This document shows, piece by piece, positions 1 to 23,850 of a DNA stretch of 64,000 nt. The notes beneath the pieces were generated by a model. That model was given only the letters and a program-made list of their open reading frames with translations. It was not told the DNA's origin and made no database searches. The stretch spans positions 11,465 to 75,464 of the forward strand of contig CAVKYE010000004.1 of the NCBI GenBank assembly GCA_963660615.1. The letters run 5' to 3'. Position 1 is the stretch's first letter, and each line of letters begins with the position of its first letter. Made by a program: the position numbers and the translations under genes. This DNA is from Vescimonas coprocola (GTDB taxonomy: Bacteria; Bacillota_I; Bacilli_A; RF39; UBA660).

Positions 1-842
1 ATAGCAGGTGTAACAGTACCAAAATAATCAGCATAGTTAGCAGCTTTAGCACTACCTAAAGTAATACCCTTAGTACTATCAAAGATAGTTTTAATACCAT
101 CATAAGCAACTGCATCATTACCGGCAGCAGCAGTTAAAGTATTAATTCCATAAGTATCACGAGCATTAGCAACACCATATGACGTATGAACATCATAATT
201 AGGTTCCCAAATCTTAACAGGTGAAGCCTCACCATTATTTAACCCTTGAATATTAGCAATACTATCATCACTTGTAGTATGACCCAAAGTAATAAATCCA
301 ACTCTTGTAGCATTCTTAATACCAGTATCTTTGGCATCTTTAAATTCTACTTTAGAATTAGCAGTCAAATAAAGATCAGTTGCAGTTTCAGTTTTTAAGA
401 ATAAATCATAAGCAACAAACGCTCCAGTTGAAGCATCACCAGAAGCATTAACTTCAGTAGATTTAGTAGAACTTAAAATCCAATCACCATTATCATTAGC
501 AGCAACAGTACCTAAGAACATTTCCATCTTACCAGTACTATCCACAGTTCCAACAGTTGAAACAGGCTCAAGAGTATTAGGAATTTGGTTAACCGCATTC
601 TTATAATTACCGCTTGCTCCAGTAATATCAGTATTAGTCAAAATAGACTTCCAATTCTGCCCATCTGCAGAAATTTGTAAACCACTCTTAGCAGTTACAT
701 TAACATCAATAGGATTAACAGAAACAGTCTTATTAGCCGTAAACCATGCATAAGTTGCAGTTCCTAAAAAAACACCAGTGCCTAACAACAATAATAGCGA
801 AAGCAACAATCGTCTTTGTTTCTTTTTCTTATTTTTTTTCAT
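1..842 (-). CDS. TasA/camelysin-like exported protein, N-terminal part only (gene runs off left edge); paralogue of 12142..13122
   Basis: Open to window edge so absent from ORF track. Minus-strand ATG at 842 with AAGGAG 6 nt upstream. My translation MKKNKKKKQRRLLLSLLLLLGTGVFLGTATYAWFTANKTVSVNPIDVNV...; KIWEPNYDVHTSYGVANA matches IWEPNYDVHTEYGVSNA of 12142..13122. Confidence 0.75.
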   Translation of the reverse strand, partial: MKKNKKKKQRRLLLSLLLLLGTGVFLGTATYAWFTANKTVSVNPIDVNVTAKSGLQISADGQNWKSILTNTDITGASGNYKNAVNQIPNTLEPVSTVGTVDSTGKMEMFLGTVAANDNGDWILSSTKSTEVNASGDASTGAFVAYDLFLKTETATDLYLTANSKVEFKDAKDTGIKNATRVGFITLGHTTSDDSIANIQGLNNGEASPVKIWEPNYDVHTSYGVANARDTYGINTLTAAAGNDAVAYDGIKTIFDSTKGITLGSAKAANYADYFGTVTPA

Positions 843-1126
843 ACACATCTCCTTCTATTCTATAAAGATATTATCACATTTTGTCAAAACAAGCAAGTAA
901 AAAATAAATAAAAAATAATTTTGTTCATTTATTTTACACAAATAAAAACAACTAAAATTAAAAAAATACTTCTTTATTCTTTATAATATTATATATAAAA
1001 CAAAAAACATAACCATTATAAAAATTGTATTTTAACTTTATCATACACTAAGCAAACTATAAAGGTAATTTTTTTGACAAATTACACGCAAAATAAAAAA
1101 ATGTAAAAAAGTGTAAAAAAAGAACA

Positions 1127-1690
1127 CTAAACCTGTTTAGCGTTCAAACTAATTTCCACATTATCAATCATACTCTGATACATATCGTCATTATACTCAC
1201 TAGGAAAATTAATCACAAGTTTATAAGTATCAGTTTTCTTAACACCCTTAGAAAAACTAGAAGCTGGAATACTAAATTTAAAAAAATACATTCCATCTTT
1301 ATCAGTAATAACTTCCTTATTACCAATAATATTTTCCGTAGAATCATTCAAAAATAAACTATAATTAACAGGAATATTAGTTGTCGTTCTAATAGACAAA
1401 GAATAATCCAAATCAACTTCACTAACCTTATTATCTTTAAAATTAGAAACATCAATATAATAAAAATTATCATTACCATCAGGCTTAACATCACTAAGTT
1501 TCAAGCTCTTTGACTGTGTCCCAGCAGAAATAGCAAAAAAAGCAACCGAAGCTTTCGCACTACCCTCTCCAGAACTCTCAAAAGAAGCAAAAGAATGCCT
1601 AAGCAAAAGTAAAAGCAAAAGCCCCAAGATAATAACTAAAGTAGCCCTATTAAACAACAAAAACTTACGCTTATCAATCATTTTTACCAT
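1127..1690 (-). CDS. small exported protein with SipW-type signal junction (..LRHSFASFESS); TasA-like small paralogue
   Basis: Track ORF 187 aa. Basic n-region, Leu-rich h-region, SFASFE junction. Overlaps upstream sipW-like gene by 17 nt. ATG at 1681 has better spacing to GAAGG and may be the true start. Confidence 0.7.
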   Translation of the reverse strand: MVKMIDKRKFLLFNRATLVIILGLLLLLLLRHSFASFESSGEGSAKASVAFFAISAGTQSKSLKLSDVKPDGNDNFYYIDVSNFKDNKVSEVDLDYSLSIRTTTNIPVNYSLFLNDSTENIIGNKEVITDKDGMYFFKFSIPASSFSKGVKKTDTYKLVINFPSEYNDDMYQSMIDNVEISLNAKQV

Positions 1691-2246
1691 CCTTCATCTT
1701 AATCCCAGAAAAATAAATTCCAAAATCATCAGATTTAGTAAGATGTCTCTTACCAGTATAAGAAAAGGCCAAAGAAAATAAAAACAAAGTAACACAAATC
1801 AAAACAATAATTTTGGGTGTTGTAATAACCTTAAACCATACACCATAATTCGGAAGAATCTTAACAACCTTACCAACAACATCCTTTTTCAAAACAGCCT
1901 TATCAGAAGTATTATTAGCATCTCCCTTAGTAACATAGCCATTCGCTGTAACAGAAACAACCCTATGAGTAACCAAAACATCATCAGACTCAAAAGTAAT
2001 AATATCAGAAGCTTTTGCTTCATCAGTAAGCTTAACCAATATTAAATCATTAGTTGTAATAGCAGGAGCCATACTATTACTACCAAGACTAAAAACAGTA
2101 TAAGAAAAGAAATTAACATACTTATGTGATAAAACATTTAAACAAATAAAAGAATAAACACATAAAACAATAACAAAAGAAAGTAATACAAACAAAATAT
2201 TACTAACAATCTTCGTTATTAAATATATATAATCACTTTTCATCAA
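1674..2246 (-). CDS. sipW: signal peptidase I, ER/archaeal (SipW) type
   Basis: 190 aa. N- and C-terminal TM segments; GSNSMAP (Ser box), NDLILVKL, LVTHRVV (His box), TKGDANN (Asp box), as in B. subtilis SipW (SGSMEP / THR / GDNN). Confidence 0.85.
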   Translation of the reverse strand: MMKSDYIYLITKIVSNILFVLLSFVIVLCVYSFICLNVLSHKYVNFFSYTVFSLGSNSMAPAITTNDLILVKLTDEAKASDIITFESDDVLVTHRVVSVTANGYVTKGDANNTSDKAVLKKDVVGKVVKILPNYGVWFKVITTPKIIVLICVTLFLFSLAFSYTGKRHLTKSDDFGIYFSGIKMKDGKND

Positions 2247-2251
2247 ATCAC

Positions 2252-2815
2252 CTACTTATACTGTACAAATTTAATACTGACTGGCACCTCAATATAATCC
2301 AAATTAGACCCTATACTAGAATCAACATCATTATACTCATCACTATTTTTCCAACTAAACGTGACCTTAATATAATACTTTTTAGAAGCTTTAATCTCAC
2401 TCAAAGAAGCAAGACCACTATAAACGCCATCAGCCAAAGTTAAAGTAGTACCATTAATACCAGAAACCTCATCAACAACAATTTGTGGATAAACTGAAGA
2501 CAAATTGACACTCAAATAATAATTAAATGAAGTCTCAGTATCCTTAGGATCAATAACAATAACAAAAGCTCCTTTAACCCCAGGTGCAAATTTAGAAACA
2601 CTCATCCCTTCTTCATCAGTATACGTAATTTCGTTAACAGTAAAAGTCTTATTTTCACCAGTTAAATCACTTTCATTAACACTAATATGCCATTTTGCAA
2701 TAGACAAATCCGTAGAAGAAGTAACCTTAGTTTCAAAAAGTCCAAAACTATTAACAATTTGAAATAATGTAAAAACAAGACATAATACTCCTAGAAATAT
2801 TAAACATTTTTTCAT
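2252..2815 (-). CDS. small exported TasA/camelysin-like protein (SipW-type signal junction ..IVNSFGLFETK)
   Basis: 187 aa. Shares AKW-I-VN and APGxxGxF motifs with 14426..15007. C-terminal YYIKVTFSW..acidic loop..VPVSIKFVQ pattern. ATGA overlap with upstream gene. Confidence 0.75.
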   Translation of the reverse strand: MKKCLIFLGVLCLVFTLFQIVNSFGLFETKVTSSTDLSIAKWHISVNESDLTGENKTFTVNEITYTDEEGMSVSKFAPGVKGAFVIVIDPKDTETSFNYYLSVNLSSVYPQIVVDEVSGINGTTLTLADGVYSGLASLSEIKASKKYYIKVTFSWKNSDEYNDVDSSIGSNLDYIEVPVSIKFVQYK

Positions 2816-3339
2816 TCTTCAATTGGAGTCTTAATTTCAATAATAACCCTGTATACTTCATACAAGAAAATAATCAAAGTAGGCAAAATAACCAAAAGTA
2901 AGAAACCATACTTAGACTCAAGAAGAGACAAAATTTTTCCTAAACCACTATAACATTTAGCAGTCTCAGTTTTACCAATTAAACTTTCACTAGAAATATC
3001 ATGATTACCATTAACAGTAAAAGTACTTTCAGTATCAGTAATAGTCTCAGTCTTAGTTACCTTACCAACATTAATAGTAGCAATACCATTAGAAACTTCA
3101 TAAAAGAAAATTTCATCCCCAACCTCAACATCACTATTTAAAGTCTTCTTAAAAACAACTAAATCACCACTTTTATACTTGTCACTTTTATCATCAATAA
3201 TAATTAAACTATTTCCATTAACAACCGATACCTTATAATCGTTATAACATAGTAACAAGCCAGTCAAAATGATAACAATTACAAAATATATAGTAATAAG
3301 AATACCTCCAATAATTTTCAAAACTTTTTTCATATACAC
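2812..3339 (-). CDS. SipW-like signal peptidase paralogue with all catalytic boxes substituted (probable pseudo-peptidase)
   Basis: 175 aa. Same N-TM / C-TM architecture and GDLVVFKK core as 1674..2246, but NGNSLI replaces SGSMEP-type box, ATINV replaces THR box, NGNHD replaces GDNN box. Confidence 0.6.
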   Translation of the reverse strand: MYMKKVLKIIGGILITIYFVIVIILTGLLLCYNDYKVSVVNGNSLIIIDDKSDKYKSGDLVVFKKTLNSDVEVGDEIFFYEVSNGIATINVGKVTKTETITDTESTFTVNGNHDISSESLIGKTETAKCYSGLGKILSLLESKYGFLLLVILPTLIIFLYEVYRVIIEIKTPIEE

Positions 3340-3383
3340 ACTCCTCTATAATAATTCTATCACAAAAATACTAAAAATAAAAT

Positions 3384-4904
3384 CTACTTTTCATAATTTG
3401 AAACAATTAACTTACTCTTCTTTACACTCTGCAAATCACAAATCGAAACACCATATTTAGAAAGAAACCTAGAAACTCTAAGCTTTTCTAAATCAGAAAT
3501 AATAGAATCTAAAGAAGAAAGCAAAGATTCCTTTTCAATATTCACATTAAAAAGTCGATAGTTAGAAACAATAATAGAAGCCACATCCACATCATCTAAA
3601 ATAGTTAAATTAGAAATAACCGTATTATCAGGATCTAAAACAAACAAAGCTAAAGAATCAAGTAAAGAAGAAATTTCATTGTAAGAATAATCAGAAGAAG
3701 ATTTAAAATAAGAAGCAAGTATACCATAATTTTGAGCCATCAAAAGCAAAGCTTTAAAAATAGTAGAATTATCCTTCAAACATTCCTTAATCTTAACTTT
3801 CATAATAGAAGAATCAATCTCATCATAAACAACCTTAATTTGATCAATTAAATCATTAATAATAGGCTCATACTTATCAACCTTAGTAAGAGACAAACGG
3901 CGACTAGACTTTTTGTTCAAAGCAAACAACTTAGATTCAAGCTTACCAATTTGTTTAAATCTTTTACCCAAAAAATCCTTTTCTAAATCTTCTTTATATA
4001 ACTCTCTTATCTTATCAATTAAAGAAACATAAGATTGATACTCCTTAAATTCATAAAGAGAATTCAAAAGCTTATTAAGAGCCTTTTCATCTAAAGAACC
4101 ATTAAACAAATTACTAATAATCGCCCCAATCTTTTCATCAGTATAATCATCAGGATTAAAAACATCATTATAAAAATTATAAAGCAAATTATTTTTAGAA
4201 GAAACCCTAGCTAAATCATACTTTCTTCTCGCATTCGAATAACCATCAATCAAACCCTGTTTAGAAGAAAAATTAGAAAGCAAAGACCTATTATAATTTT
4301 TAATATACCTATTAAAAGAACCAATATTCTTTAAATATAAAGATTTAAAATTAAGAATAATATGCATAACCAAATTAGGACATTGCCAAAAAATAGAATC
4401 AAAAGAAGATTTTAATTCATCGCAAGATAAATCCTCCCGAAACACGAAAAACTTAGTCATATATTGATTAACATAAGAACTATATCTAAAAGAAGAAGCA
4501 GAAATACAAACAGAGACCCTATCAAAAATAGAAACACATTCATCAATCTTCTTATTTAAATAATTAAAACTATCCGGCATATCCTCATAGCAAGATAAAT
4601 CATAAATAACCCTATCAAAACCAAGTTTCTCATAAGGAGTATTCATATCAGTAGTATAAAGTAAATCATCATAAAATTTAGAAACATCAGAATACAAAGA
4701 GCCAAAATCATCAAAGACAAGACTATCATAACAAGAAAGTCTATTTTTAAATTCCAAATAAATATTTTTCAAAATCCCTTCATACTTACTAATTTCTAAA
4801 GAAACATCATTAAAAACCTTCTCTTTATTCTTCAAAGTATCAAGAGGCATACTTTCAAAAACCTCAGTTGCAGCTTCAATATCCTTAGTTAACTTTTCCA
4901 ACAT
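3384..4904 (-). CDS. hypothetical cytoplasmic protein, 506 aa, no TM or signal, no family recognised
   Basis: Long uninterrupted ORF inside the fibre operon. Start ATG 5 nt after the AGGTGA that ends the 33-aa ORF upstream. Confidence 0.7.
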   Translation of the reverse strand: MLEKLTKDIEAATEVFESMPLDTLKNKEKVFNDVSLEISKYEGILKNIYLEFKNRLSCYDSLVFDDFGSLYSDVSKFYDDLLYTTDMNTPYEKLGFDRVIYDLSCYEDMPDSFNYLNKKIDECVSIFDRVSVCISASSFRYSSYVNQYMTKFFVFREDLSCDELKSSFDSIFWQCPNLVMHIILNFKSLYLKNIGSFNRYIKNYNRSLLSNFSSKQGLIDGYSNARRKYDLARVSSKNNLLYNFYNDVFNPDDYTDEKIGAIISNLFNGSLDEKALNKLLNSLYEFKEYQSYVSLIDKIRELYKEDLEKDFLGKRFKQIGKLESKLFALNKKSSRRLSLTKVDKYEPIINDLIDQIKVVYDEIDSSIMKVKIKECLKDNSTIFKALLLMAQNYGILASYFKSSSDYSYNEISSLLDSLALFVLDPDNTVISNLTILDDVDVASIIVSNYRLFNVNIEKESLLSSLDSIISDLEKLRVSRFLSKYGVSICDLQSVKKSKLIVSNYEK

Positions 4905-4908
4905 AAAA

Positions 4909-5010
4909 TCACCTACTTTCCTGCTTCTTTTTCTCTAAAAACTTTAAATAAGCTTCAATTTTATTAAAACATTCAATAAGCTCATCCATAGATAAATCAT
5001 TCAAATTCAT
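4909..5010 (-). CDS. 33-aa micro-ORF MNLNDLSMDELIECFNKIEAYLKFLEKKKQESR
   Basis: Below ORF-track size cutoff. ATG at 5010 preceded by GGAGG (5016..5020, overlapping the TAG of the giant gene) with 5-nt spacing. Its last codons AGG TGA form the RBS of the next gene. Confidence 0.45.
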   Translation of the reverse strand: MNLNDLSMDELIECFNKIEAYLKFLEKKKQESR

Positions 5011-5019
5011 AAAAACCTC

Positions 5020-8000
5020 CTATTTAATAATAATATAAGTCTCACAATCACCAATAAACGTATCACCATCATATAAACTAAAAACAAATTTGTAAGTACC
5101 ACTTTTTAAAGTAGACTTCAAATAAAGTGTCTTCTTAGAAGAAGAATCCGGATCAGAAATAAACATATATTCATTTTCAGAAACACTATCAAGTCTATTA
5201 GTAATAAAATCAAACAAATTAACTTTAACATAAGACGTATCATACAAATCATTATACTCACGTCTATAAAGAGAAACCCTAATAGATGGATTAATTAAAT
5301 TAGATGAATAACCAGTATCAAAATCCAAAGCATTAGTACTCTTAACATTAACACCACTATCACTATCAATAACAACCTCATCATCAGGAAGCGTAACATT
5401 AAGTCCATAAACGCTATCAACAATAGTAAATGGAATCTCATAAGAAGAAGCAGAAGAACCATAATAAATACCATCAGAAGAACCAAAAGCCTCAATTTTA
5501 AACTTATAAGTGCCACTAGACAAATTTAAATTTTCCGTATTAACTTTAATCTTACCATACCAATTAGCCACTTTATCAGCAACCGAAATACGAACACTAC
5601 CATCCATCCTTGGATAATAAACCTTATCCTTATATTCATAAGTCAAACCAAGCAAACTACTATTATTAAGTCTATTACCATTATTATCATAAATAGAAAT
5701 TTTAACCCCCATTTTCTTATCAAAATAAGTAGTATCTGTAACCGGAAGTGAACCAACAAGCGGTTGAGTAAAATTCGCATTTAAACTCAAACTAGGAGTA
5801 TCACCTAAATAAACCTTAGAATCATTAATAGAACCAGACAAATCAATAGATGCTTTACTATCATTATACAAATTATAAGTAAGTGCAGAATGTTGAATAC
5901 TAAGAACGCTAATCAAAGTCTGGTCATTTTTATTCCTTAACTCAAGCAAAAGTTTCTTATCAGTAACGTCCGAAGAAATAGAAGTATCTTCAAAAGAAAC
6001 ATTAAAAATAAATTCCTCTAAAACATAACCCGATTTATAATACCGACTATTATTCAAAGATTCATCAAAATTATTCGAGGAACTAGTAGAACCCATAGCC
6101 ACAAAATTACTAAGATTATAAGAACACTCACCATACTTCTCATACTCAGAAGAAGCACGGTTAACATCATCCTCAGAAACAACATAATAATAGTAAGTAT
6201 TATTAGCCAAATCAATCATCGTAAGCTTAGTATTAAGTGGAAAAACATAATCAGAAACTAAAGCATGATAATAACCATCCTGATAATATTGCTTATCAGA
6301 TTTCATATATAAAGAATAATACGCACTAAGATTAGACTTATTAGTAATATTCGTCGCCGTAGAAGCAAACAATCCATATTTCTCACCAGCCGCCATAGCA
6401 CCTTCATAATCATTATCACTATATAAAGCCGAACTCAAAGTAATATTAATATTAACACGAGTAACTTCATTATTTAAATCATCAATAGGCTTAATTGCAA
6501 GAAGTGAAATAACAACCGTACCAATTTCACGATTCAAAGTAATATTCTTTGAATGATACAAATAGAAAAGCAAAGACGGAACAGTAGAAGAGTTCTCAGC
6601 CTGATAATCACGCGTACCATCAATTGGAGTCTTAGAATCAGAAAGAAAATTAGTCTGACCTTTAGTAATAAAACCAGTATTAGAAGATTCCATAGAAAGA
6701 GCCATTCTATCATCAGCCGTTCCACTATTATTAACACGCGAAACAGAAGAAGGGGAAACAAGCTCAAAACCATCCTCCAAATTTTGATAATTAAAACCAA
6801 TAATTTCGTAAATCGTATTAGCACCAGCAGAAGCAGTCAAAGGAAGTTCATAAGTACCTAAAGTAGAATATTTAGATGCCGTCAAACTAAAATCATAAGT
6901 TGTAACCTTCTCCCCAATAACCCACATATAATAACTTGCATCACTAGGAGTAGGTTCAATATATTTAGCCTGAACAACTGAAGCCTTTTCCTCATTTTCA
7001 TAATTAGAATAAAATCCATCCTTAGTAATATCATGATTAGAAGTATGCATACCTAAAACATAACTACCAGAAGTAAATGAATAAAATTCACCAGATAAAA
7101 CCGAATCACCACTATTATACTTATTATTATAAAAAGCTGTAGAAACCTTGCCATTACGATCAAGCTGATACATACCAAAAAACGTCATACCACTTACCTT
7201 ACCATAACTAGTAACCGCTTCATTAGTAGCAATATTCAAATTTTTATTTTCAAGCATATAAACACGATTATTAACATTACGAGTAACATTATCACCATCA
7301 ATAGTAACACTAGCCTTTTCTTCAGTAGCACCGCTAATCTTCAAACTAGAAAACTTTTCAAGTAAATTAGTACCATTTCCCAAAAACAAAGTACTGCCAT
7401 TTGCGAGCTTAAGTTCCTTAACCCTACTAATACTAAACTTAGTATTTGAATACTCATTAGTTCTATCAGTAGTTCCCTCTAACTTAATAGCAGAATTCTT
7501 AATAGTAACAATATCAGCCCTTTGAATAGAAATATTTTCCTTATACTCATCAAAAGTACCATAATTACTAATATTAATATAACTATATCCTTTAGTACTA
7601 GATGCATTACCACTACCGAAAATAGAACCTAAAATATCAAACTGCTTATAACCATTCCCATCAATGTTAATAGTAATACCCTCAGTAACACTAATAAATG
7701 AATAATCATAATTGGTATCACCCGAAGCATTAGCCTCGCCACCACCAAACACAGTACCACCAATATTAATATTAGTCTTAACATAACTATCAACCGAAGA
7801 ACCAATATTCAAAATCGTCTTACCATATAAAATAGCCGTATTAGCACCACCATAAACATTACCAGAAATACTAGCACCTGCAATATTAACAGTACTAATA
7901 GATTTTGTACTATCCTTACTACCTGTATTAGCAGCATTACCTCCACCAAACACATGCTTAGAAATAACCGAATTATTATCAATAGTTAAAGTAGTATTAC

Positions 8001-11000
8001 CACTAACAATAGCTGTATTACCATTACCACCAGCATAAATACTTCCCAAAGACGTTGCATTAGATACATAAACATCAGTATTACCAAGTACAGTACCTAA
8101 ATTACCTCCACCAAATAAATCAGATGAAATACTAGAATTTTTAAAAACAACCTTCGTATTATAATTAACAGTAGCCTTATTACCGCCACCATAAAATTTA
8201 CCAGTCACAGTAACATTAGATACATTAACATTCGTATAATCAGTAGCAGCCTCATTACCTCCACCATAAATATTATTATAAGAACCACCATTCAAATCAA
8301 CAGTTGCAGTTTCCGTAACACCACCTTGATTATTACCACCATAAATATTATCAATCGAAACATCACTAGAAGTAGAAGTAATATTACCACTAGCTACAGT
8401 ACCACTACTATTACTACCACCAAACACAGAAACTGAACTACCAGAAACCAACTCAACATTAGTCTTTGAAACACCAGCCTCATTACCACCACCATAAATA
8501 GAAGTAACAGAAGACCCATTTAACTTAACATTAGAAGTATCAGTAGAAGTTTTATTACCCCCACCATAAACAGAAGTAATAATACCACCATTTAACTTAA
8601 CATTAGAAGTAGTAGTAACACCTCCTTGATTATTACCACCATAAACAGAAGTAATCGTTCCACCATTAATAGAAACATTACTAACAGGAACATCACCAAG
8701 AATATTAGAACCACCATAAACATTTTCGATAGTTCCACCACTAACTAAAACAGAAGTCTTAGAAACAATGCTAGCCTGTTGACCACCACCATAAACAGTA
8801 CCGACCAAACCACCACTAACATTAACATCACTAGTGTCAGTATCAGTAAGCTTACCTCCACCATACAAATTAGTAATCGCCCCAGAACTCACATCAACAG
8901 AAGTAGTAGTAGTCTTACCACCAACATTATTGCCTCCATAAAGATTTGTTACATTTCCACCAGTTACATTAATAGTAGAAGTCTCTACATCTCCGCTTTC
9001 ATTACTACCACCAAAAACATTTGTGCAATCACTACCAATTTGATATACATATGTTTTTGTTACAGCCGTTTTATTACCACCGCCATATGCAGATTCTACA
9101 GTTCCACCATTTAAATATACCTTAACCGTTCCATTTGGAGTTCCTGCCGCATCATTACCACCAAAAGCATTTGTAACTTTACCATTATTTATCGTAAGAG
9201 TAACATCACCAGTTACATATGGTGTATTGCTATCATCACCTTTACCTCCACCAAATACATTATTAACAGTACCACCATTTACATTAACAGCAGTTTTATA
9301 AGAACTTACAGAAGTAGTTTTACTCTTATCATTAACCGTACCATATGCACTTCCACCATATGCTGAACCCGTTAAATTTAAAGAATTAGTACTATCACCT
9401 AAATTTACTGTAACATTTTGTGAAACAACAGTACCACTACCAAGTCCACCACCAAATACATTATTAACACTACCCTTTAATATATCCAAAGTAACATCAC
9501 CGTAAAGTGTTCCTTTTTGATTAGAACCACCATATATTCCACCAGTTACACTACCACCTGTCATCGTTATACTAGTTGGAATACTAACTTGCCATTCTTT
9601 TCCAGAACCACTATTATTTCCAGAACCAAATACCGATCCAATAGTTCCACCTAAAATATTAATACTTACACTACCATTACTGCTAGAATTATAACCAACA
9701 GTTCCATAATTTCCACTACCATATACATTCTTCTTTATTGTAGCCTCATCATTAATAACAATAATTGAATTATCAACCGATCCAATAGTTGCATAACTAG
9801 TATTACCATTTCCAGCACCAAAAACAGAACCACTTTCAGCACCAAACAATGTACTATTATTATTTATATACTCATCATTACCAATAGTAGCCGTTCCACC
9901 AATATAAACATAACTACTTCCAGTTAAAGTACCATCAGAACTAGAACCATCATGACCATTACTACCACCAAAAACACTATAATTAACCGTTCCACCAGTT
10001 ACCTGAATTATTCTATTTCCATAAGTAGTAGATGTTCCAGCACCACCAGTAATCATATCAACTACTCCACCAGTCATATAAATCATAACATCATTTTTAC
10101 TACCCCTACTACTATCAGTAAGCGGACCACCAATCAAATTATAAATATATCCACCTTCTATTTTAGCAGTCTTTGAAGCATAATGAGTCCCAGAATAACG
10201 ACCTCCAACATAAATCCCAGTTGTTAAATCATATTTACTACTTCCAAAAGTTCCACTTTTAACTACAGTATTTAATGCAGCTATATTATCATTATCAGAT
10301 GAATAAATATTAGCATACCAACTACCAGATACACAATAATAAAAATCCAAATAACTATTATTACTTGTAGCCCTGTCATAATCATTACCATATATAGCAT
10401 TCATCTCCGTGTACAAAGATGAACTCCAACCTCGATCATTAGCTCCCGTAGTTGAACTAGCCGAATTATAAAAACCACTTTCAACCATAATAGTAAATCT
10501 TTTAGGATTACTACTACTACCAGTATCAGAACTATCCCAAGAATTAGAAGAATTAGCCCCAGCTATAATTGAATCAAACGTTTTATAACTACCACTTTGC
10601 TTTATACCACGGCCTATTTTAACATTTTGATAATTACCATAAAAAACACCAGAACCACTTGAACTAGAAGTTGGAGCACTTGTAGAATTACTTTTCCGAC
10701 TATTAATAGTCATATTTTCTATTCTTAAAGCACCATAAGCCTTTATAGCAACATTAGAAACAGTCCATGTTGGTTTATAATCCGTACCATTATATATCCC
10801 AGTTAAAGTAAATGGCTTTGATGAAGAAGAACTCCAAGTACTAGAAACATTACCATTCATAACTAAAATATTAGTATCCCTTGTTGTTAAATAATAATAA
10901 TCAGTATTTTCATCAAATAATTCTAAAGAACCATCTGATTTATAAAATTGAATTAATTCATATACCTCACAACCACCACTAGTAGAGCAAGTACCACTTT

Positions 11001-12120
11001 GTAAAACACCAGTATCATTATAATAACCACTAATAGAACTTCTATAATCAACACTAACCTTACGATAATAACCAGCCATATTAGTAGTTGACGTAAAATT
11101 CTTATTTTCCTCTTTGCCTACAACCGTTGCCGTTAAAGAAGCTTCTTCAAAACCATAATAATTATTATAAGTATAATATTTAGCATCCATATCAAAAGTA
11201 TCACTACTAGTTTGTTTATAATATATTTGGCATGTATTTGTATACGTACCTTGACTTTGACCCCAACCAGTATTTGGTGCAGGACATTGATAAGAACTAT
11301 GATAACTACCAGAAGAATCATAACAATTACTACACGTTCCATAAGTAGTATCACCACGTCCCCACCAACCAGAAACAACAGTCTTAGTTGTAATACTATC
11401 TCCTTTATAATAACCTTCAACGCTAGGATAATCATATATATATTTCACAGTATTCACTTTATTCATACCCTTAGTTTTTAACTTACTAATTGCATTATCA
11501 AAAGAATTACTACTATTAACATAAGCAACTTCCCCACTAGTCCAATTAGCATAAAAATTAATATTAATTTTATTTGAACTAACAGGCACTTTAGCACTCC
11601 TAGCGTAATAAGTATCATCATAACTAATAGAAGCACCACTATAATCAGTAATCCAACCATTAAATACCATATCATCAGGATGAGAAGAAAAAGGATTATC
11701 AATTAAATCAATTTCTATATATCCATTATTAACAGGATAATATTTATAGTAAACATACTTACTTTGTTTCTCGCTTAAAGAAACATACCCAGTATTTAAC
11801 CCATTATAATCCGTACCATTATAAGTAATCGTAACCTCTACTAAATTATTATCATTATATAAATTTTTATCAACATTTGTAGGAAGGCTACTAGAACTGC
11901 TACTAGTATAATTTTGACCCGTATAATAATAATAATCACTATCTAAATCATCAACATAAACAGTATCACCAGTAACACCATAAGTAACAGAATCATCACT
12001 ACTAGCACGTAATGATCCATAAGTCAAAGCAATAGAAGTAATAGGAATACATATAGCTAAAAGGACAAGCAAAAAATCTTGTCTATTTCTAAAAAAATTT
12101 TTTAAAATTTTTATAACCAT
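5020..12120 (-). CDS. giant (2366 aa) exported glycine-rich beta-solenoid/adhesin-like protein with SipW-type signal junction
   Basis: Track ORF. N-terminus MVIKILKNFFRNRQDFLLVLLAICIPITSIALTYGSLRASS. About 25-30 modules of about 24 aa centred on [YF]GG[GS]N. No LPXTG, SLH or other anchor recognised at the C-terminus (...GDCETYIIIK). Confidence 0.9.
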   Translation of the reverse strand: MVIKILKNFFRNRQDFLLVLLAICIPITSIALTYGSLRASSDDSVTYGVTGDTVYVDDLDSDYYYYTGQNYTSSSSSSLPTNVDKNLYNDNNLVEVTITYNGTDYNGLNTGYVSLSEKQSKYVYYKYYPVNNGYIEIDLIDNPFSSHPDDMVFNGWITDYSGASISYDDTYYARSAKVPVSSNKININFYANWTSGEVAYVNSSNSFDNAISKLKTKGMNKVNTVKYIYDYPSVEGYYKGDSITTKTVVSGWWGRGDTTYGTCSNCYDSSGSYHSSYQCPAPNTGWGQSQGTYTNTCQIYYKQTSSDTFDMDAKYYTYNNYYGFEEASLTATVVGKEENKNFTSTTNMAGYYRKVSVDYRSSISGYYNDTGVLQSGTCSTSGGCEVYELIQFYKSDGSLELFDENTDYYYLTTRDTNILVMNGNVSSTWSSSSSKPFTLTGIYNGTDYKPTWTVSNVAIKAYGALRIENMTINSRKSNSTSAPTSSSSGSGVFYGNYQNVKIGRGIKQSGSYKTFDSIIAGANSSNSWDSSDTGSSSNPKRFTIMVESGFYNSASSTTGANDRGWSSSLYTEMNAIYGNDYDRATSNNSYLDFYYCVSGSWYANIYSSDNDNIAALNTVVKSGTFGSSKYDLTTGIYVGGRYSGTHYASKTAKIEGGYIYNLIGGPLTDSSRGSKNDVMIYMTGGVVDMITGGAGTSTTYGNRIIQVTGGTVNYSVFGGSNGHDGSSSDGTLTGSSYVYIGGTATIGNDEYINNNSTLFGAESGSVFGAGNGNTSYATIGSVDNSIIVINDEATIKKNVYGSGNYGTVGYNSSSNGSVSINILGGTIGSVFGSGNNSGSGKEWQVSIPTSITMTGGSVTGGIYGGSNQKGTLYGDVTLDILKGSVNNVFGGGLGSGTVVSQNVTVNLGDSTNSLNLTGSAYGGSAYGTVNDKSKTTSVSSYKTAVNVNGGTVNNVFGGGKGDDSNTPYVTGDVTLTINNGKVTNAFGGNDAAGTPNGTVKVYLNGGTVESAYGGGNKTAVTKTYVYQIGSDCTNVFGGSNESGDVETSTINVTGGNVTNLYGGNNVGGKTTTTSVDVSSGAITNLYGGGKLTDTDTSDVNVSGGLVGTVYGGGQQASIVSKTSVLVSGGTIENVYGGSNILGDVPVSNVSINGGTITSVYGGNNQGGVTTTSNVKLNGGIITSVYGGGNKTSTDTSNVKLNGSSVTSIYGGGNEAGVSKTNVELVSGSSVSVFGGSNSSGTVASGNITSTSSDVSIDNIYGGNNQGGVTETATVDLNGGSYNNIYGGGNEAATDYTNVNVSNVTVTGKFYGGGNKATVNYNTKVVFKNSSISSDLFGGGNLGTVLGNTDVYVSNATSLGSIYAGGNGNTAIVSGNTTLTIDNNSVISKHVFGGGNAANTGSKDSTKSISTVNIAGASISGNVYGGANTAILYGKTILNIGSSVDSYVKTNINIGGTVFGGGEANASGDTNYDYSFISVTEGITINIDGNGYKQFDILGSIFGSGNASSTKGYSYINISNYGTFDEYKENISIQRADIVTIKNSAIKLEGTTDRTNEYSNTKFSISRVKELKLANGSTLFLGNGTNLLEKFSSLKISGATEEKASVTIDGDNVTRNVNNRVYMLENKNLNIATNEAVTSYGKVSGMTFFGMYQLDRNGKVSTAFYNNKYNSGDSVLSGEFYSFTSGSYVLGMHTSNHDITKDGFYSNYENEEKASVVQAKYIEPTPSDASYYMWVIGEKVTTYDFSLTASKYSTLGTYELPLTASAGANTIYEIIGFNYQNLEDGFELVSPSSVSRVNNSGTADDRMALSMESSNTGFITKGQTNFLSDSKTPIDGTRDYQAENSSTVPSLLFYLYHSKNITLNREIGTVVISLLAIKPIDDLNNEVTRVNINITLSSALYSDNDYEGAMAAGEKYGLFASTATNITNKSNLSAYYSLYMKSDKQYYQDGYYHALVSDYVFPLNTKLTMIDLANNTYYYYVVSEDDVNRASSEYEKYGECSYNLSNFVAMGSTSSSNNFDESLNNSRYYKSGYVLEEFIFNVSFEDTSISSDVTDKKLLLELRNKNDQTLISVLSIQHSALTYNLYNDSKASIDLSGSINDSKVYLGDTPSLSLNANFTQPLVGSLPVTDTTYFDKKMGVKISIYDNNGNRLNNSSLLGLTYEYKDKVYYPRMDGSVRISVADKVANWYGKIKVNTENLNLSSGTYKFKIEAFGSSDGIYYGSSASSYEIPFTIVDSVYGLNVTLPDDEVVIDSDSGVNVKSTNALDFDTGYSSNLINPSIRVSLYRREYNDLYDTSYVKVNLFDFITNRLDSVSENEYMFISDPDSSSKKTLYLKSTLKSGTYKFVFSLYDGDTFIGDCETYIIIK
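7600..10050 (-). repeat. intragenic tandem array of about 70-80-nt modules encoding the [YF]GG[GS]N repeats
   Basis: On the plus strand, accaccataaa(c/t)a-type cores recur every 70-80 nt (near 8270, 8335, 8490, 8560, 8635, 8715, 8790, 8860, 8935). Adjacent modules 8521..8660 are near-identical. Confidence 0.7.
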
Positions 12121-12141
12121 ACATTTCCTCCTCTTCTAAAA

Positions 12142-13122
12142 CTATGACGGATTAGTTGTAAACTCCAAATTAAAACTTATATCACCATAAGCTGCATTAT
12201 TCTCACAATCAACATCCTGTCCTTCAATCCACATATAAATACGCAATTTAGAAATACTAGGTTTAATCGTAAGAAGCGAAACATTTTGAGAATTATTCTT
12301 AGGTGTATATGCCTTAACATTAACACGCTTAAACAAATTAGGATATAAATTAGCATTTGCATTTTGAATAAGTACATTATTCCCAGCAGAAATATCACTA
12401 ATAACACCATCATAAGGAAGTAAAGAACCACCAGTTTGAGAAGTAGAAATTCCATAAACCTTACTAGCATTACTAACACCATACTCCGTATGAACATCAT
12501 AATTAGGTTCCCAAATAATAGCCTCACTCGCACCCTTTAAATTTTGAGCAGCTGAAGAACTATCACTAGACCCCTCATTCAAAATAGCCACTCTTGTAGC
12601 ATTTTCAATTCCAGAAGTTTTATCGCCAGTATAAGAAACACTAGAATTACTAGATAAATACAACTCTTTTTCACCACTAATCTTAAAAAATAAATCAAAA
12701 ACAATAAAAGTTCCATCACTATCTTCACCAAAACTAGAAGTTTCCAAAGACTTATTAGCTACTAAAATAAAATCAGTTGACTTATCATTAGTAGCATCAC
12801 CCTTATACATATTTAAAAAACCATTGGAAATCGTACCACCCGTCGAAACAGGATAAATTCTATAAGGAATTTGATTAACACTACCACTATAATTTTTACT
12901 AGCATTCCTAATATCATTAACAGTAATAACCTGTTTCCAATCAACAGCATCAGTACTAACCTCAATACCCCCGTCAGCCTGAACGTGAACATCAAGAGCC
13001 TCAATACTAACAACCCTATTCGCTGAAAACCAAGCATAAGTAGTTGTAATTAAAAGGATAAAACTAAAAAATAAAGGAAAAATAATTAACTTACGTCTTT
13101 TTTTTCTATTTTCTTTCGTCAT
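12142..13122 (-). CDS. TasA/camelysin-like exported protein, 326 aa (large paralogue)
   Basis: Track ORF trimmed to ATG at 13122 (GGAGGAG upstream). MTKENRKKRRKLIIFPLFFSFILLITTTYAWFSANRVVS. C-terminus LRIYMWIEGQDVDCENNAAYGDISFNLEFTTNPS. Confidence 0.8.
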   Translation of the reverse strand: MTKENRKKRRKLIIFPLFFSFILLITTTYAWFSANRVVSIEALDVHVQADGGIEVSTDAVDWKQVITVNDIRNASKNYSGSVNQIPYRIYPVSTGGTISNGFLNMYKGDATNDKSTDFILVANKSLETSSFGEDSDGTFIVFDLFFKISGEKELYLSSNSSVSYTGDKTSGIENATRVAILNEGSSDSSSAAQNLKGASEAIIWEPNYDVHTEYGVSNASKVYGISTSQTGGSLLPYDGVISDISAGNNVLIQNANANLYPNLFKRVNVKAYTPKNNSQNVSLLTIKPSISKLRIYMWIEGQDVDCENNAAYGDISFNLEFTTNPS

Positions 13123-13816
13123 CAGTATGCTCCTCCCTAAATTCCATATTAAGTTTAATTTCACCACCAATAATTGCATCAACACACTCAGCGTCTTCAC
13201 CTTCAAGATAAACAACAACCGTATATTTGTCAACATCAGAAGCTTTCAAAGCCTTTCTCTGCTTTAAAACAGCAACATCTTTAGAAACAAAAGGTACAGT
13301 CCCAACCTCAGCCTTACCAGTTAAACTACTGCTTTTCGCATAAACAGTTTCCTTACCATTTTGGTAAACAATAATCCTAATAGCATCATCAACATTTTTA
13401 ATAACATCAAGAATATTAATTTGATACCAGTAATTAGTAGCCTCCTTCCCCTCATTAGCAATATAAAAAGTATAAGCAATATAATTTTCCCCATTATGAC
13501 TGCCACCATTTGAAGAATCAATATCACTAGGAAGCCAGCTCTTAGTAATATTATCCATAAAAGGGATTTCTTTAGCATATAGCTTATTCTTCGGAGTTTT
13601 TTCATCTAAAGATTCATACAAAACAATATCATTTTTCAAAGTTAAATTAGGATCCAAAGTAACAGTAAAATTACCACCCTTATAAATGACCATAAGCACA
13701 AAGAAAAAACAAAGCAACAAAAGAAATAAAATAATAACAATTCTTCTAATATATTTATATCTTCTTTCACGTTTTTTTAATTCTTCAGCTGTAACCTTAA
13801 CAGTACCTACTCCCAT
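13106..13816 (-). CDS. membrane-anchored paralogue of the TasA-like family (236 aa, single N-terminal TM, no SipW junction)
   Basis: RRIVIILFLLLLCFFFVLMVIY TM segment. C-terminus YTVVVYLEGEDAECVDAIIGGEIKLNMEF aligns with the C-terminus of 12142..13122. First gene after the promoter at 13846..13874. Confidence 0.7.
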   Translation of the reverse strand: MGVGTVKVTAEELKKRERRYKYIRRIVIILFLLLLCFFFVLMVIYKGGNFTVTLDPNLTLKNDIVLYESLDEKTPKNKLYAKEIPFMDNITKSWLPSDIDSSNGGSHNGENYIAYTFYIANEGKEATNYWYQINILDVIKNVDDAIRIIVYQNGKETVYAKSSSLTGKAEVGTVPFVSKDVAVLKQRKALKASDVDKYTVVVYLEGEDAECVDAIIGGEIKLNMEFREEHTDDERK

Positions 13817-13845
13817 ACAATCACGATTCCTTTATTATCAATACA

Positions 13846-13874
13846 ATTTTACCATAAAATGCAAATTTTGTCAT
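13846..13874 (-). promoter_or_regulatory. sigma-A-like promoter of the fibre operon
   Basis: Minus strand reads ATGACA - 17 nt (ending TGG) - TAAAAT, about 30 nt upstream of the ATG at 13816. Confidence 0.5.
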
Positions 13875-13944
13875 AAAATTGCAAAAAAAAGAAACATATT
13901 CAAATAAAAATTTATAAAACAATATTTTTAATATTTAAAATATA

Positions 13945-14259
13945 CTACTTTTTTGTTCTTCTAAGACCAAAGTCAAAAGAAGCATCATCACGAACAAACT
14001 TAATTGACATTGTTTTAAATAAATCATCCAAAGGCAAAGTATCATCAAAATTTTCCCTCTTAGCACCCCTAGCAACACCTTCAACAACCGAAAAGCTAGG
14101 ATATTTAATTTCCACACCATTAATTTTTTTACCACTATTTTTTTTATTAGAAATACTCCCATTAGAATCTGAAGTAGCAGAAACATCTACATGTTTCCTC
14201 CTTATCAAAAAAAGAACAATAATAAGACTAACAACACTAACACATAAAATAACAAACAT
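13945..14259 (-). CDS. hypothetical membrane-anchored protein, 104 aa
   Basis: Track ORF trimmed to ATG at 14259 (GGAGG at 14266..14270, 6-nt spacing). MFVILCVSVVSLIIVLFLI TM segment then a hydrophilic tail. Confidence 0.6.
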   Translation of the reverse strand: MFVILCVSVVSLIIVLFLIRRKHVDVSATSDSNGSISNKKNSGKKINGVEIKYPSFSVVEGVARGAKRENFDDTLPLDDLFKTMSIKFVRDDASFDFGLRRTKK

Positions 14260-14391
14260 AAAAAGCCTCCTATTCACATACAATTCTACCACATATAAAA
14301 AAATTATAAAAAATATAACAACAAAAAAATGCTAAAATTTACACAACTTAACACTTTTAAAAACAAAAATAAAAAACAATCAAAAACAAAA

Positions 14392-14400
14392 TGATATAAT
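14392..14400 (+). promoter_or_regulatory. extended -10 element (TGaTATAAT) for 14426..15007
   Basis: tgatataat 26 nt upstream of the ATG; AAGGAGG RBS follows. Confidence 0.45.
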
Positions 14401-14425
14401 AAAACAAAAAGGAGGCGTAGTAAAT

Positions 14426-15007
14426 ATGACAAAACAGCGAAAAATAAAAATATCAATCGCAGTAATTGCATTAATCATATGCATAAGTCAAATAAGTCAA
14501 ACCTACGCCAAATATCTAGAAACAAAAACAGGGGACACTGACTTTAATATAGCTAAATGGCAAATACTAGTTAATGATAAAGATATTACCGAAGCTACCA
14601 CAATGTCATCATTAATAACACCAGTATACTTAGAAAATGAAAATGTTGCCAAAAATGTCATAGCACCAGGTACAGAAGGATACTTCGATCTTGACATAAA
14701 TGCAGAAAAAACCCAAGTATCATTTCAATACAACATAAATGCTACAAATTCTGAAAATAGTTCTGTAACAGACTTAAAAATAACTGGTTACCAATTAAAT
14801 AATAGCACACTAGTAAATACAAATGAAAGTGAAATAAAAGGCACCATAAACCAAAGTGAAACAAACAAAAAATTAACAATAAGAATATACTTCAAATGGT
14901 TAGATGGAGAACAAGAAACAATGGATAACAAAGAAGATACAAAAGCTTCAGTAAACGGTGAAACAGCGAAATTAAAAGTAAATTTATCATTTACCCAAAT
15001 AGCATAA
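14426..15007 (+). CDS. small exported TasA/camelysin-like protein (SipW-type junction ..ISQTYAKYLET), divergently transcribed
   Basis: 193 aa. AKWQILVN and IAPGTEGYFDLDI motifs shared with 2252..2815. C-terminus LTIRIYFKWLDGEQETMDN...AKLKVNLSFTQIA. Confidence 0.8.
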   Translation: MTKQRKIKISIAVIALIICISQISQTYAKYLETKTGDTDFNIAKWQILVNDKDITEATTMSSLITPVYLENENVAKNVIAPGTEGYFDLDINAEKTQVSFQYNINATNSENSSVTDLKITGYQLNNSTLVNTNESEIKGTINQSETNKKLTIRIYFKWLDGEQETMDNKEDTKASVNGETAKLKVNLSFTQIA

Positions 15008-15048: not shown

Positions 15049-15297
15049 TTAAAAAACAAGCATAAATACAAACAACAAAATAACAAAAAAAACAATTACA
15101 TAAGGTATAAACATCATAACAAAATTTAAAATTTTATGTCTACTTAAAAAACTTTCAAATAAAATTCTAAAAACAATAACAATAAGTATCAAAAAAATTG
15201 AAACAATAATCATATCAAAAATACTACATAAATTATTAATATAATACATAACAACAAACCTTTCTGAAAATAAAAAAGGAATAAAAACATAAACCAC
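15049..15297 (-). CDS. small hydrophobic membrane protein (66-82 aa, about 3 TM)
   Basis: Track ORF starting GTG, sharing one nt with the noc stop (TAGTG). Alternative ATG at 15249 has GAAAGG upstream. No homology recognised. Confidence 0.4.
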   Translation of the reverse strand: MVYVFIPFLFSERFVVMYYINNLCSIFDMIIVSIFLILIVIVFRILFESFLSRHKILNFVMMFIPYVIVFFVILLFVFMLVF

Positions 15298-17168: not shown

Positions 17169-17255
17169 AAACTGCCCCTCCCTTCTATTCTTTATAATTA
17201 TAATACTATTTTTCGGGAAATAATTCAACAAAAAAACAAAATAAAAAGAAAAAAA

Positions 17256-17954
17256 CTACAAAGGTCTTTTCTTAATCTCAGCAAATCTTCGAGGATATTT
17301 AATTGAAGTCTTCTTTTCCTTACAAATCTTAATAAGCATTCTTGAACTTTCCTCATATGGTAAAACAAATTCATCCACGCATTCAATCTTACCACCTAAA
17401 ACCTTAAGTGCATTAGAAGATGTACTAACATCCTCCATACCCTTCATCGAAACAAAATAAGAAGAAACTTTAACAAGCGGCAAACAATACTCAAGTAAAA
17501 CTGGTAAAGAAGCCACCGCCCTTGCTGTAACTACATCAAACATCTCCCTATTTTTTAAAGCATACTCCTCCGCTCTAGCATGAACTAAAGAAACATCCTC
17601 AAGTCCAAGAGAAAAACAAACAGTCTCCAAAAACTTAATACGTTTATTCAAAGCATCAACCAAAGTAAGTTTTAAATGAGGAAAAAATATCTTTATAACA
17701 ATACCAGGAAAACCAGCACCAGTACCAACATCACAAAAAGAAGATACCTTATTAAAATCAATAACTCTACACAAAGTTAAACTATCATAAAAATGTTTTA
17801 GAAACACATCTTCCTTCTTAGTAATAGCCGTCAAATTAATCTTCTCATTAAAAGAAATAAGTAAATCATAATATTTATCAAGCAATAATAACTCAGAATC
17901 AGAAACAGAAATTCCAAGTTTTGTAACTTCTAAAATAAATTCATCTCTTGTCAT
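17256..17954 (-). CDS. rsmG: 16S rRNA (guanine527-N7)-methyltransferase
   Basis: 232 aa; [13 protein letters not shown] motif; synteny mnmG-rsmG. Confidence 0.93.
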
Positions 17955-19806: not shown

Positions 19807-19891
19807 TTATATCACCAAATTTCTTAACATAAATATTATACATTTATTTTCAAAGAAGAACAAGCAAAAGAAACTATATTTCAAGTTTCTA

Positions 19892-21241: not shown

Positions 21242-21330
21242 ATACTGTCACCTCTCAAAAATAATTTTACTATGAGAAAAAAAAATAGTCAACAAAGTGA
21301 CCAAATTAATTATTGTGGAAAACAAAATAA

Positions 21331-21855
21331 CTACTTCTTCTTTTTAGAAATCCCCAAATATTTAAGTAAATTCTTATCAGGCTTCAAAATACCCACACTA
21401 ACCTTCTTATCAACAAAAGTAACAACCCATCCTTCTGCATATTTAGGCGGATAAATATTAAGTGGAAACATATGTCTTAAAATAATATCAGAAACTCTAT
21501 CATTAATGTACTCAGGAAAAAACTTAACCGCATTATCCAAAGCATCAGCCGCATGAGTAAAACCATGCTGCTTAAAAAATGGCTTCTTCTCTCCTAAATG
21601 TTCCTGCCATGGTTCACTATAAAAATCATGAAGAACCCCACCGATAGCCGCATCACGGTAATTAAGACCTATCTTAAGACAGTACCTATAAGCAATATAA
21701 GAAACCATAATACAATGTTCATAAACCGAGCAATCATCATGATGCATAAAAAACTTCCGCTTAGAAAACTCAGAAGAATTAATAATAGGCGAAACAATCT
21801 TCATATATTCCACATCTTTAAGTGCCCTATCTAGAGTAATACCAACCTTATTCAA
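21331..21855 (-). CDS. HD-domain phosphohydrolase
   Basis: 174 aa; H...HD (GGVLHDFY) metal motif. Inserted between mnmE and jag. Confidence 0.7.
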   Translation of the reverse strand: MNKVGITLDRALKDVEYMKIVSPIINSSEFSKRKFFMHHDDCSVYEHCIMVSYIAYRYCLKIGLNYRDAAIGGVLHDFYSEPWQEHLGEKKPFFKQHGFTHAADALDNAVKFFPEYINDRVSDIILRHMFPLNIYPPKYAEGWVVTFVDKKVSVGILKPDKNLLKYLGISKKKK

Positions 21856-21887
21856 ATAAAATCCCTCATTCCTAACAAAAAGAAAGA

Positions 21888-23469: not shown

Positions 23470-23470
23470 A

Positions 23471-23806: not shown

Positions 23807-23850
23807 AATCATCACCTATACAAAAACCACTGCTCCTAAAGCAGCGGCTA

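Follow-up and report, generated by a model that had tools for sequence, protein, structure and literature searches.

What is built by the exported proteins encoded at one end of a 64,000-nucleotide stretch of Vescimonas coprocola DNA (the window; contig CAVKYE010000004.1, positions 11,465 to 75,464), six of which, including one of 2366 amino acids, end their leaders in the same short junction? The answer that we favor, with a probability of about 0.55, is that of a SipW-dependent surface-fiber apparatus with a giant adhesin and a membrane-associated nucleoside triphosphatase (NTPase) module. Window positions 1..15007 hold the exported-protein (structural) half of a ~26-kb system of at least 19 genes, and the cluster extends ~7 kb past window position 1 on the source contig. 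The products discussed below are the exported or membrane proteins A to F, the giant, the predicted cytoplasmic protein cyt506 and the signal peptidase homologs SipW1 and SipW2 in the window, together with SipW3, SipW4, p192, p307, p322, p368 and p505 outside it (Table 1).

A sequence-only reading of the window had proposed that every exported product shares one signal-peptide junction, [ST]-[YF]-[AG]-x-[FYL]. We found this motif straight after the hydrophobic core in A, B, C, D, F and the giant, compared with none of the 47 other window open reading frames (ORFs) of at least 150 amino acids and a background density of 2e-4 per residue. The six carriers lie beyond chance, and alignments of orthologs from 80 fetched loci, each from a different species, showed that the motif is kept across ~80 species. 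The junction of the D/A orthologs reads [TS]-Y-A-W-F-[TS]-x-N-R, with the A and W present in 70 of 70, and that of F reads [TS]-Y-A-K-Y (K and Y in 72 of 72). The giant has [TS]-Y-G-x-[LFY] (G in 28 of 31 orthologs), and C has S-F-G-[LV]-F-E, kept in 12. The word "every" went too far, since the junction of E is I-Y-K-G-G-x-F-T, part of a stretch (I-Y-K-G-G-x-F-T-V-T-L-D) conserved in 79 orthologs and unlike the shared motif.

The shared motif satisfies the −3/−1 rule of type I signal peptidases, with small residues. The equivalent stretch of the TasA family, G-G-G-T-W-A-A-F-N-D, aligns with it position for position, and the chain in the solved TasA fiber (PDB 8AUR) starts at A28, giving a cut at T-W-A|A-F in the position equivalent to the junction. 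Given this fit and this cut site, the products encoded here would be cut after [AG], which would leave an aromatic residue at mature position 2. Such a residue is conserved in nearly all junction-bearing families, the giant often having Leu instead. These comparisons support the junction as a putative SipW-class cleavage site. The leader model TIGR04088 scored A at 18.4 bits (cutoff, 19) and gave no match at E ≤ 0.1 for the other window products; across 113 diverse representatives of the D family it matched 54 at E ≤ 1 (best, 1.6e-4) and was the only recurrent NCBIfam match. The junctions stand after the hydrophobic core and not before it, as a class III type IV pilin leader (G|F/M xxxE) would, and no prepilin peptidase was matched in Pfam/NCBIfam scans of the locus products. 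SipW substrates in metagenomes could be annotated simply by means of the conserved pattern [ST]-[YF]-[AG]|x-[FY].

Two peptidase genes of the endoplasmic reticulum (ER)/archaeal type lie inside the operon, one of which had been called a pseudo-peptidase, correctly as it turned out. SipW1 scored 76.4 bits against TIGR02228 (cutoff, 51.85), and its orthologs retain the Ser of GSMxP, the His of THR and the GDxNN motif. SipW2 scored 19.8 bits, is without the catalytic His and has a Ser that is not conserved among orthologs; it aligned by hhalign at 98% to SipW4 and 96.5% to SipW1 and is present in 50 loci. The off-window part of the cluster holds a second pair: SipW4 (189 amino acids, 74.9 bits) keeps Ser and His, while the degenerate SipW3 (159 amino acids) falls short in both the TIGR02228 score and the catalytic Ser and His. 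Every SipW homolog overlaps the start of the exported-protein gene next to it, on its downstream side. In one species (L084:7108-8361), the peptidase at the SipW4 position is a 417-amino-acid ORF, ~230 residues over the usual length, and may be a fusion, recalling the fusions of type I signal peptidase (SPase I) with DUF5305 reported in 10.64898/2026.01.04.697558. Another species (L061:6578-8509) encodes an extra 643-amino-acid protein with a textbook leader, ...GATYAYFQAQ.

With respect to family membership, the window products had been assigned to TasA/camelysin, and none of the comparisons made bore this out; we rejected the assignment on Pfam/NCBIfam models, phmmer and hmmsearch against PDB sequences, hhalign and Foldseek. 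PF12389 (Peptidase_M73), present in all 120 listed TasA homologs, had no match at E ≤ 0.1 in nine small or mid-sized products or in the giant, and did not appear in the list of the 25 families matched most often by the 113 D-family representatives at E ≤ 1. Searches of all PDB sequences with phmmer and hmmsearch returned no relative of the window products. When profiles of D, A, F, C, B, p192, p307 and E were aligned by hhalign with a TasA profile of 112 sequences, whose query had been checked against 8AUR, the values were at most 3%, the leader alone aligning. Greedy alignments of F, C and p192 ran co-linear with TasA from end to end and were not significant; the likeness to the last strands of TasA that the sequence-only reading had suggested found no statistical support in either kind of alignment. 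TasA structures (5OF1 and 8AUR) were not among the best 50 Foldseek matches of the D or F model. The TasA label is wrong for family membership and reasonable as a functional analogy. The likeness is one of function: the leader resembles TIGR04088, the subunits are beta-sandwiches, and the locus has its own dedicated TIGR02228 peptidase as well as a relative of D that is anchored in the membrane. What stands of the proposed multi-subunit TasA-like fiber system is its leader, peptidase and locus logic, but not its family.

Nor are the small exported proteins six paralogs of one another, as had been suggested; they form two families, {A, D} and {F, C, B}, that are weakly linked (D/A to F at ~80% by hhalign, over the N-terminal 100–120 columns). 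A and D are clear paralogs (40% identity; BLASTP E value, 3e-67), as are F and C (BLASTP E value, 7e-17; hhalign, 99.7%), and B joins the latter as a divergent member (hhalign, 84% with C and 79% with F). Orthologs of B were present in only four fetched loci, three of which are near-identical contigs of the source lineage. E has a basic cytoplasmic N-terminus, a single transmembrane segment and an ectodomain, and has ~35–50 C-terminal residues in common with D and A (D with E, BLASTP 4e-4 over 49 C-terminal residues; A with E, hhalign 93%). The E gene runs into the start of D, both in the window and in three other species checked. As judged from its sequence, the conserved junction of E appears non-cleavable, and the protein probably carries the C-terminal strands of D.

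The D family comprises 1614 close homologs and, at E ≤ 1e-3, 3471 cluster representatives (50% identity). The 120 listed D homologs have no Pfam assignment, and no Pfam family recurred in a scan of 113 representatives. D contains the invariant motifs WEPNYDxHT and IEGQDVDCE. Its AlphaFold2 model is mostly beta (predicted local distance difference test (pLDDT), 85; predicted template modeling score (pTM), 0.83) and had no Foldseek neighbor in PDB or BFVD at E ≤ 1e-3. A viral or capsid-like origin of D was rejected on the empty BFVD search, and D may have a variant of a fold without a solved representative, as the model is confident and has no neighbor. F was modeled as a beta-sandwich (pLDDT, 76) with 15 PDB matches at E ≤ 1e-3 (best, ~1e-4; TM-scores, 0.19–0.32), all generic jelly-rolls or sandwiches, including CBM6/35, the C-terminal domain of PNGase, Cry11 toxins, phiX174 G and FimG with its donor strand. 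Residues directly past the junction have low pLDDT in both models, as expected of an N-terminal extension. The modeled fold class of F and D is compatible with a TasA-like subunit, without identifying one.

The giant has a single N-terminal transmembrane segment. Its residues ~860–1460 contain ~22 repeats of ~25 residues (spacing, 24–26) marked by [FY]GG[GSAN], which are taken to form a beta-helix. They are followed by a C-terminal region of ~870 residues, whose extreme end, ...LYDGDxFIG...YIIIK-COOH, is conserved in all orthologs (36–80% identity). The giant has no Pfam, NCBIfam or PDB match (phmmer included); a known domain in the C-terminal region was rejected when a 15-sequence profile also gave no match. 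By hhalign, its leader profile aligned with the leaders of F, C, p192, p307 and E at 64–84%, and homology of its body to the small subunits was rejected, the leader alone aligning. Neither an LPXTG motif (pattern [LIV]Px[TSA]G) nor a second transmembrane segment is present in the giant, and no sortase was matched by Pfam among the locus products scanned. These absences and the junction kept in orthologs support the suggestion that the giant uses the same export pathway without a recognizable anchor. The gene comes after D in 57 of 61 loci. Residues ~200–350 (window ~11070..11520) are the least conserved stretch of the protein, with a column identity of 0.28–0.39, and hold four of its 11 cysteines, with two more just beyond at 378 and 384; this stretch may be a variable insert, possibly ligand-facing.

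The other half of the system lies outside the window (L085:13070-19202), where SipW3, p307, p322, p505, p368, SipW4 and p192 adjoin one another on the source contig, as they also do in other species. At the N-terminus of protein p505, hydrophobic segments precede a charged helical stretch; this region gave weak FtsL, DUF948 and AmaP matches. The AAA+ core of p505 matched Escherichia coli McrB (PDB 6UT6; E value, 1.7e-3) with the Walker A, Walker B and sensor/MNxxD-region motifs aligned. p505 is almost invariant across 48 species, its core being highly conserved, and it contains an invariant GTINNDDST motif whose INNDD can be read as NxD or NxxD. Its neighbor p368 is a DUF2357 protein (PF09823; E value, 2.3e-12 for the L024 ortholog, with a precomputed match on the source contig) among whose orthologs no PD-(D/E)xK nuclease motif is conserved. 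In McrC, DUF2357 is the domain that inserts into the McrB ring. The scans detected no nucleic-acid-binding domain, the p505 N-terminus being a membrane anchor instead. Among candidate defense proteins in PADLOC, p505 matched PDC-M26A at 7e-34, and no PADLOC annotation was obtained for p368, p322, cyt506 or p307. Plasmid-borne AAA ATPases of diverse bacteria are 36–40% identical to p505 in the AAA+ core only, and one match of lower identity is annotated as EVE domain-containing. A cultured or plasmid example of the whole system was rejected on this limited sharing and on the single neighborhood examined, which has nothing but AAA and hypothetical proteins and no annotated peptidase. The leaderless and probably cytoplasmic cyt506, p322, p368 and p505 showed no homology to one another; cyt506 had no match in Pfam, NCBIfam or PADLOC scans. 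It was detected in 56 fetched loci, and of the 61 species loci with at least 9.5 kb downstream of D, 51 have it.

Relatives of D occur in at least 415 GTDB species representatives, almost all of them uncultured gut or rumen Bacilli. The genomes are labeled mostly as uncultured Bacilli, Tenericutes and Erysipelotrichaceae, and include Clostridium sp. CAG:451, CAG:914, CAG:628 and CAG:609 and Firmicutes bacterium CAG:884; among the genomes is a 1.26-Mb chromosome in a single record. We examined ~80 of the 415 loci and found the conserved cluster in most, E being present in 83 of 84 and F in 74. Of the 51 loci with enough upstream sequence, 36 carry the McrB block upstream of F; in the source genome it lies downstream of A. 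Loci with D 60–79% identical to that of the window were also found in bins labeled Muribaculaceae, Bacteroidaceae, Sphaerochaetaceae, Paludibacteraceae and Oribacterium (L008, L009, L011, L019, L021 and others); these labels are probably binning or labeling errors, because the flanking genes match Bacilli loci.

The presence of an McrB-like/McrC-like half outside the window changes which known system is closest. CoCoPALM systems were named in one passage of Bell et al. 2024 (eLife), without gene content, examples or mechanism and with analysis deferred; the name occurs in no later paper in the literature searched and nowhere in the supplements of Bell et al. that were searched. We compared five CoCoPALM features (an McrB-like GTPase, an FtsB-like transmembrane segment plus coiled coil, a DUF2357 McrC, operonic association with signal peptidases and the NxD signature) with the off-window block, which has three of them: the McrB-like GTPase, the DUF2357 partner and the signal-peptidase association. 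In p505, the N-terminal transmembrane and helical region replaces the DNA-binding domain, as in CoCoPALM. In contrast, the published description mentions no exported families, giant, pairs of intact and degenerate peptidases or taxonomic home.

Fiber loci offer the second comparison. The TasA superfamily described in 10.64898/2026.01.04.697558 (TasA, AbpX, AbpA, Tafi, threads such as Saci_0406, and cannulae) consists of jelly-roll subunits that polymerize through donor strands at their N-termini, a conserved aromatic residue at mature position 2 serving as the clamp. Besides a TIGR02228 SPase I, its loci encode minor subunits, tip proteins, membrane anchors and an accessory protein of the SPase. 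The same locus logic is found here, known from genes and monomer models, and F would start K-Y-L-E, with an acidic residue at position 4 like AbpX. The accessory proteins here are instead degenerate SPase paralogs and not DUF5305 proteins, no NTPase is described for the superfamily, and TasA, the one member compared by sequence, has no sequence link to the products of this locus. With the tapA-sipW-tasA locus of Bacillus subtilis and sipW-tasA-calY of Bacillus cereus, the cluster shares a dedicated SipW, a T-aromatic-A|x-F leader and several exported beta-sandwich proteins, and E is possibly an anchor or nucleator like TapA. Those loci have three genes compared with ~19 here, TasA shows no detectable homology to the proteins of this cluster, and the four SipW homologs (two inactive), the 2366-amino-acid substrate and the McrBC-like module are found only in the latter. 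The sipW-bsaA-bsaB-bsaC operon of Clostridium perfringens (PMC7395162, PMC11580942) is likewise a Firmicute SipW operon with a polymerizing subunit and a large non-TasA secreted protein, the 70-kDa BsaC, whose signal was deemed likely to be SipW-processed and whose secretion needs type IV pilus proteins; BsaA oligomers are membrane-anchored before release. It differs in that BsaA and BsaB are recognizable TasA relatives and BsaA is locked by isopeptide bonds. By its gene content, the locus appears to match both CoCoPALM and SPase-I-dependent, donor-strand-type fiber loci, and its protein families appear undescribed. Apart from near-threshold leader matches to TIGR04088, the structural proteins of the cluster fall outside Pfam/NCBIfam families.

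For the surface-fiber apparatus, we propose the following sequence of events. N-terminal membrane-spanning leaders would hold the exported products in the membrane, where SipW1 and SipW4 would cut after the small residue [AG]. The new N-terminus, with its aromatic residue at position 2, would then act as a donor strand clamped in the next subunit. D, and perhaps A, may be the major beta-sandwich subunit that builds the shaft, with F, C, B and p192 as minor or adaptor subunits and E as an uncleaved, membrane-anchored, D-like base. The giant beta-helix protein would be exported and trimmed in the same manner and carried on the fiber as an adhesin. SipW2 and SipW3 could bind leaders without cutting them, as holdases or assembly subunits, and p505, p368, cyt506 and p322 could assemble at the inner face of the membrane into a platform that powers or gates export or assembly. 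A bolder version, which we regard as doubtful, makes the McrB-like ring and its McrC-like partner, both tethered at the inner membrane face, the NTP-dependent motor or gate of an unrecognized fiber-assembly machine in monoderms, with the degenerate signal peptidases as its leader-binding assembly subunits. If it were true, a restriction-enzyme motor would have been re-used to assemble, extrude or retract a SipW-processed, donor-strand-type fiber tipped by a giant adhesin.

Several points weigh against the fiber apparatus. Sequence and structure tests link no product to TasA or its solved relatives, and the confident D model stands without a structural neighbor in PDB/BFVD at E ≤ 1e-3. The NTPase block could be linked physically and be separate functionally: McrBC relatives act on nucleic acids, and to our knowledge there is no precedent for an McrB-like ring in protein export.

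The strongest rival, which we consider unlikely, is a secreted matrix or adhesin cluster with no ordered fiber, in which the small beta-sandwich proteins and the giant act independently at the surface or in the matrix and merely share a dedicated signal peptidase, and to which the McrBC block is an unrelated neighbor. BsaC provides a precedent for a large non-TasA protein secreted from a SipW operon, the D fold is without a pilin-like neighbor and the relative position of the two blocks differs among lineages. Yet the blocks remain adjacent despite this rearrangement, and both contain SipW homologs and junction-bearing proteins of the F/C/p192 family. The overlap of E with the start of D, in the window and the three other species, and the aromatic residue kept at mature position 2 also speak against this reading.

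A quite improbable alternative is that the locus is an anti-phage or conflict system of a CoCoNuT-like McrBC clade, in which the exported proteins are envelope sensors or effectors that, for example, block or sense phage adsorption, and not a housekeeping fiber for adhesion. The PDC-M26A match of p505, the kinship of its core to plasmid-borne ATPases and the placement of CoCoPALM among CoCoNuT-like systems by Bell et al. 2024 all fit this idea. Against it, p368 is without a conserved nuclease motif, and p505 has a membrane anchor at its N-terminus, no nucleic-acid-binding domain being detected. In addition, >15 kb of the cluster codes for structural exported proteins, and its conserved gene order, with D relatives in >400 species representatives, and its place ~9 kb from dnaA in a small genome are unlike a variable defense island. 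Least probable of all is that the leaders are uncleaved membrane anchors, the motif being a membrane-interface or recognition motif and all proteins including the giant remaining tethered by their N-terminal helix: the N-terminus of E is clearly anchor-like, two of the four peptidase homologs appear inactive from their residues and BsaA oligomers are reported to be membrane-anchored before cleavage, but the motif fits the −3/−1 rule exactly as the proven TasA site does, two intact dedicated peptidases are conserved in the cluster and the D family matches TIGR04088.

The cluster takes up ~2% of a genome of ~1.2-Mb scale (one complete relative has 1.26 Mb); given this size and its spread, it is probably central to the attachment of these reduced-genome organisms to hosts, food particles or partner cells. 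For CoCoPALM, so far a name, the locus provides a set of genes with their substrates, together with a cleavage motif and pairs of peptidases. Very large adhesins, besides fiber subunits, may be both exported and trimmed by dedicated SPase I systems, and envelope biogenesis may have recruited a motor of the McrBC type.

Table 1 Features of the cluster, with positions in the window (leader cleavage sites, marked by a vertical stroke, are predicted).
Feature	Position	Strand	Description
A	1..842	−	5′ 280 codons of a 335-amino-acid D paralog, cut by the window edge; leader ...GTATYA|WFTAN
Terminator-like hairpin and T-run	1122..1145	−	overlaps the B stop codon; consensus scan
B	1127..1690	−	small exported beta-rich protein, leader ...RHSFA|SFESS
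SipW1	1674..2246	−	ER/archaeal-type signal peptidase I, catalytic residues intact
C	2252..2815	−	small subunit-like exported protein, leader ...VNSFG|LFETK; F paralog
SipW2	2812..3339	−	degenerate SipW homolog (pseudo-peptidase); 4-nucleotide overlap with the C start
cyt506	3384..4904	−	506 amino acids, no leader motif, taken as cytoplasmic; conserved partner of the giant
33-amino-acid ORF	4909..5010	−	between giant and cyt506; in public calls; detected in 17 loci
Giant	5020..12120	−	2366-amino-acid exported protein, leader ...IALTYG|SLRAS
D	12142..13122	−	326 amino acids, candidate major subunit, leader ...TTTYA|WFSANR
E	13106..13816	−	type-II membrane protein; candidate membrane-anchored base; 17-nucleotide overlap with D
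Promoter-like element ATGACA-17-TAAAAT, upstream TG	13846..13874	−	consensus scan
p104	13945..14259	−	104-amino-acid single-pass membrane protein between F and E; in public calls; 25 loci
F	14426..15007	+	193-amino-acid small subunit-like exported protein, divergent, leader ...SQTYA|KYLET
p307	off-window		membrane or exported protein, junction T-L-G-R-Y
p322	off-window		no leader motif; probably cytoplasmic
p505	off-window		McrB-like AAA+ protein, membrane-anchored
p368	off-window		DUF2357 (McrC-like) protein
p192	off-window		leader N-S-F-A|W-F-I-Y; F/C family, hhalign 92.8% to C

The arrangement of the window genes agreed with the earlier description of nine packed minus-strand genes between 13816 and 1127, the ORFs standing where it had put them. 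Their order is E, D, giant, 33-amino-acid ORF, cyt506, SipW2, C, SipW1 and B; besides the overlaps listed in Table 1, SipW1 and B overlap by 17 nucleotides, and the remaining gaps are short. Public gene calls on the same contig concur, except for slightly shorter starts of SipW2, SipW1 and B. Full-length A (335 amino acids) is found at L085:11974-12981 on the source contig. F is divergent in the window and in four other species with gene maps, and a 66-amino-acid ORF (15049..15249, minus strand), also in the public contig calls, flanks F together with p104.

The promoter-like site described ahead of the operon has its two hexamers, but such sites are no commoner than in shuffled sequence: a consensus scan of this AT-rich DNA (~30% G+C) found 89, compared with 84 ± 9 in shuffles. 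We dropped the scan as evidence, the element being indistinguishable from the AT-rich background. Terminator-like sites numbered seven, compared with 3.5 ± 2.0 in shuffles, and the hairpin that overlaps the B stop codon is a possible end of the E-to-B transcription unit.

Beyond F, window positions 15297..33295 hold minus-strand parB, rsmG, mnmG, mnmE, jag and yidC, followed by plus-strand dnaA, dnaN, recF, gyrB and gyrA. A sign change of the GC skew at ~24–26 kb coincides with dnaA (24478..25824); this switch and the position of dnaA therefore put ~9 kb between the locus and the replication origin, with the locus on the leading strand and its transcription co-directional with replication. The ParB/Spo0J homolog (15297..17231, minus strand; ParB_N and HTH_ParB) has a low-complexity extension of ~350–400 residues, rich in Ser, Asn, Pro and Val, that ends in a short ordered C-terminus and gives the protein a length unusual for a ParB. 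The only Rfam matches in the window were a small signal recognition particle (SRP) RNA (34510..34607, plus strand; 61.8 bits) and an L31-Firmicutes ribosomal leader (54259..54290, plus strand; 38 bits).

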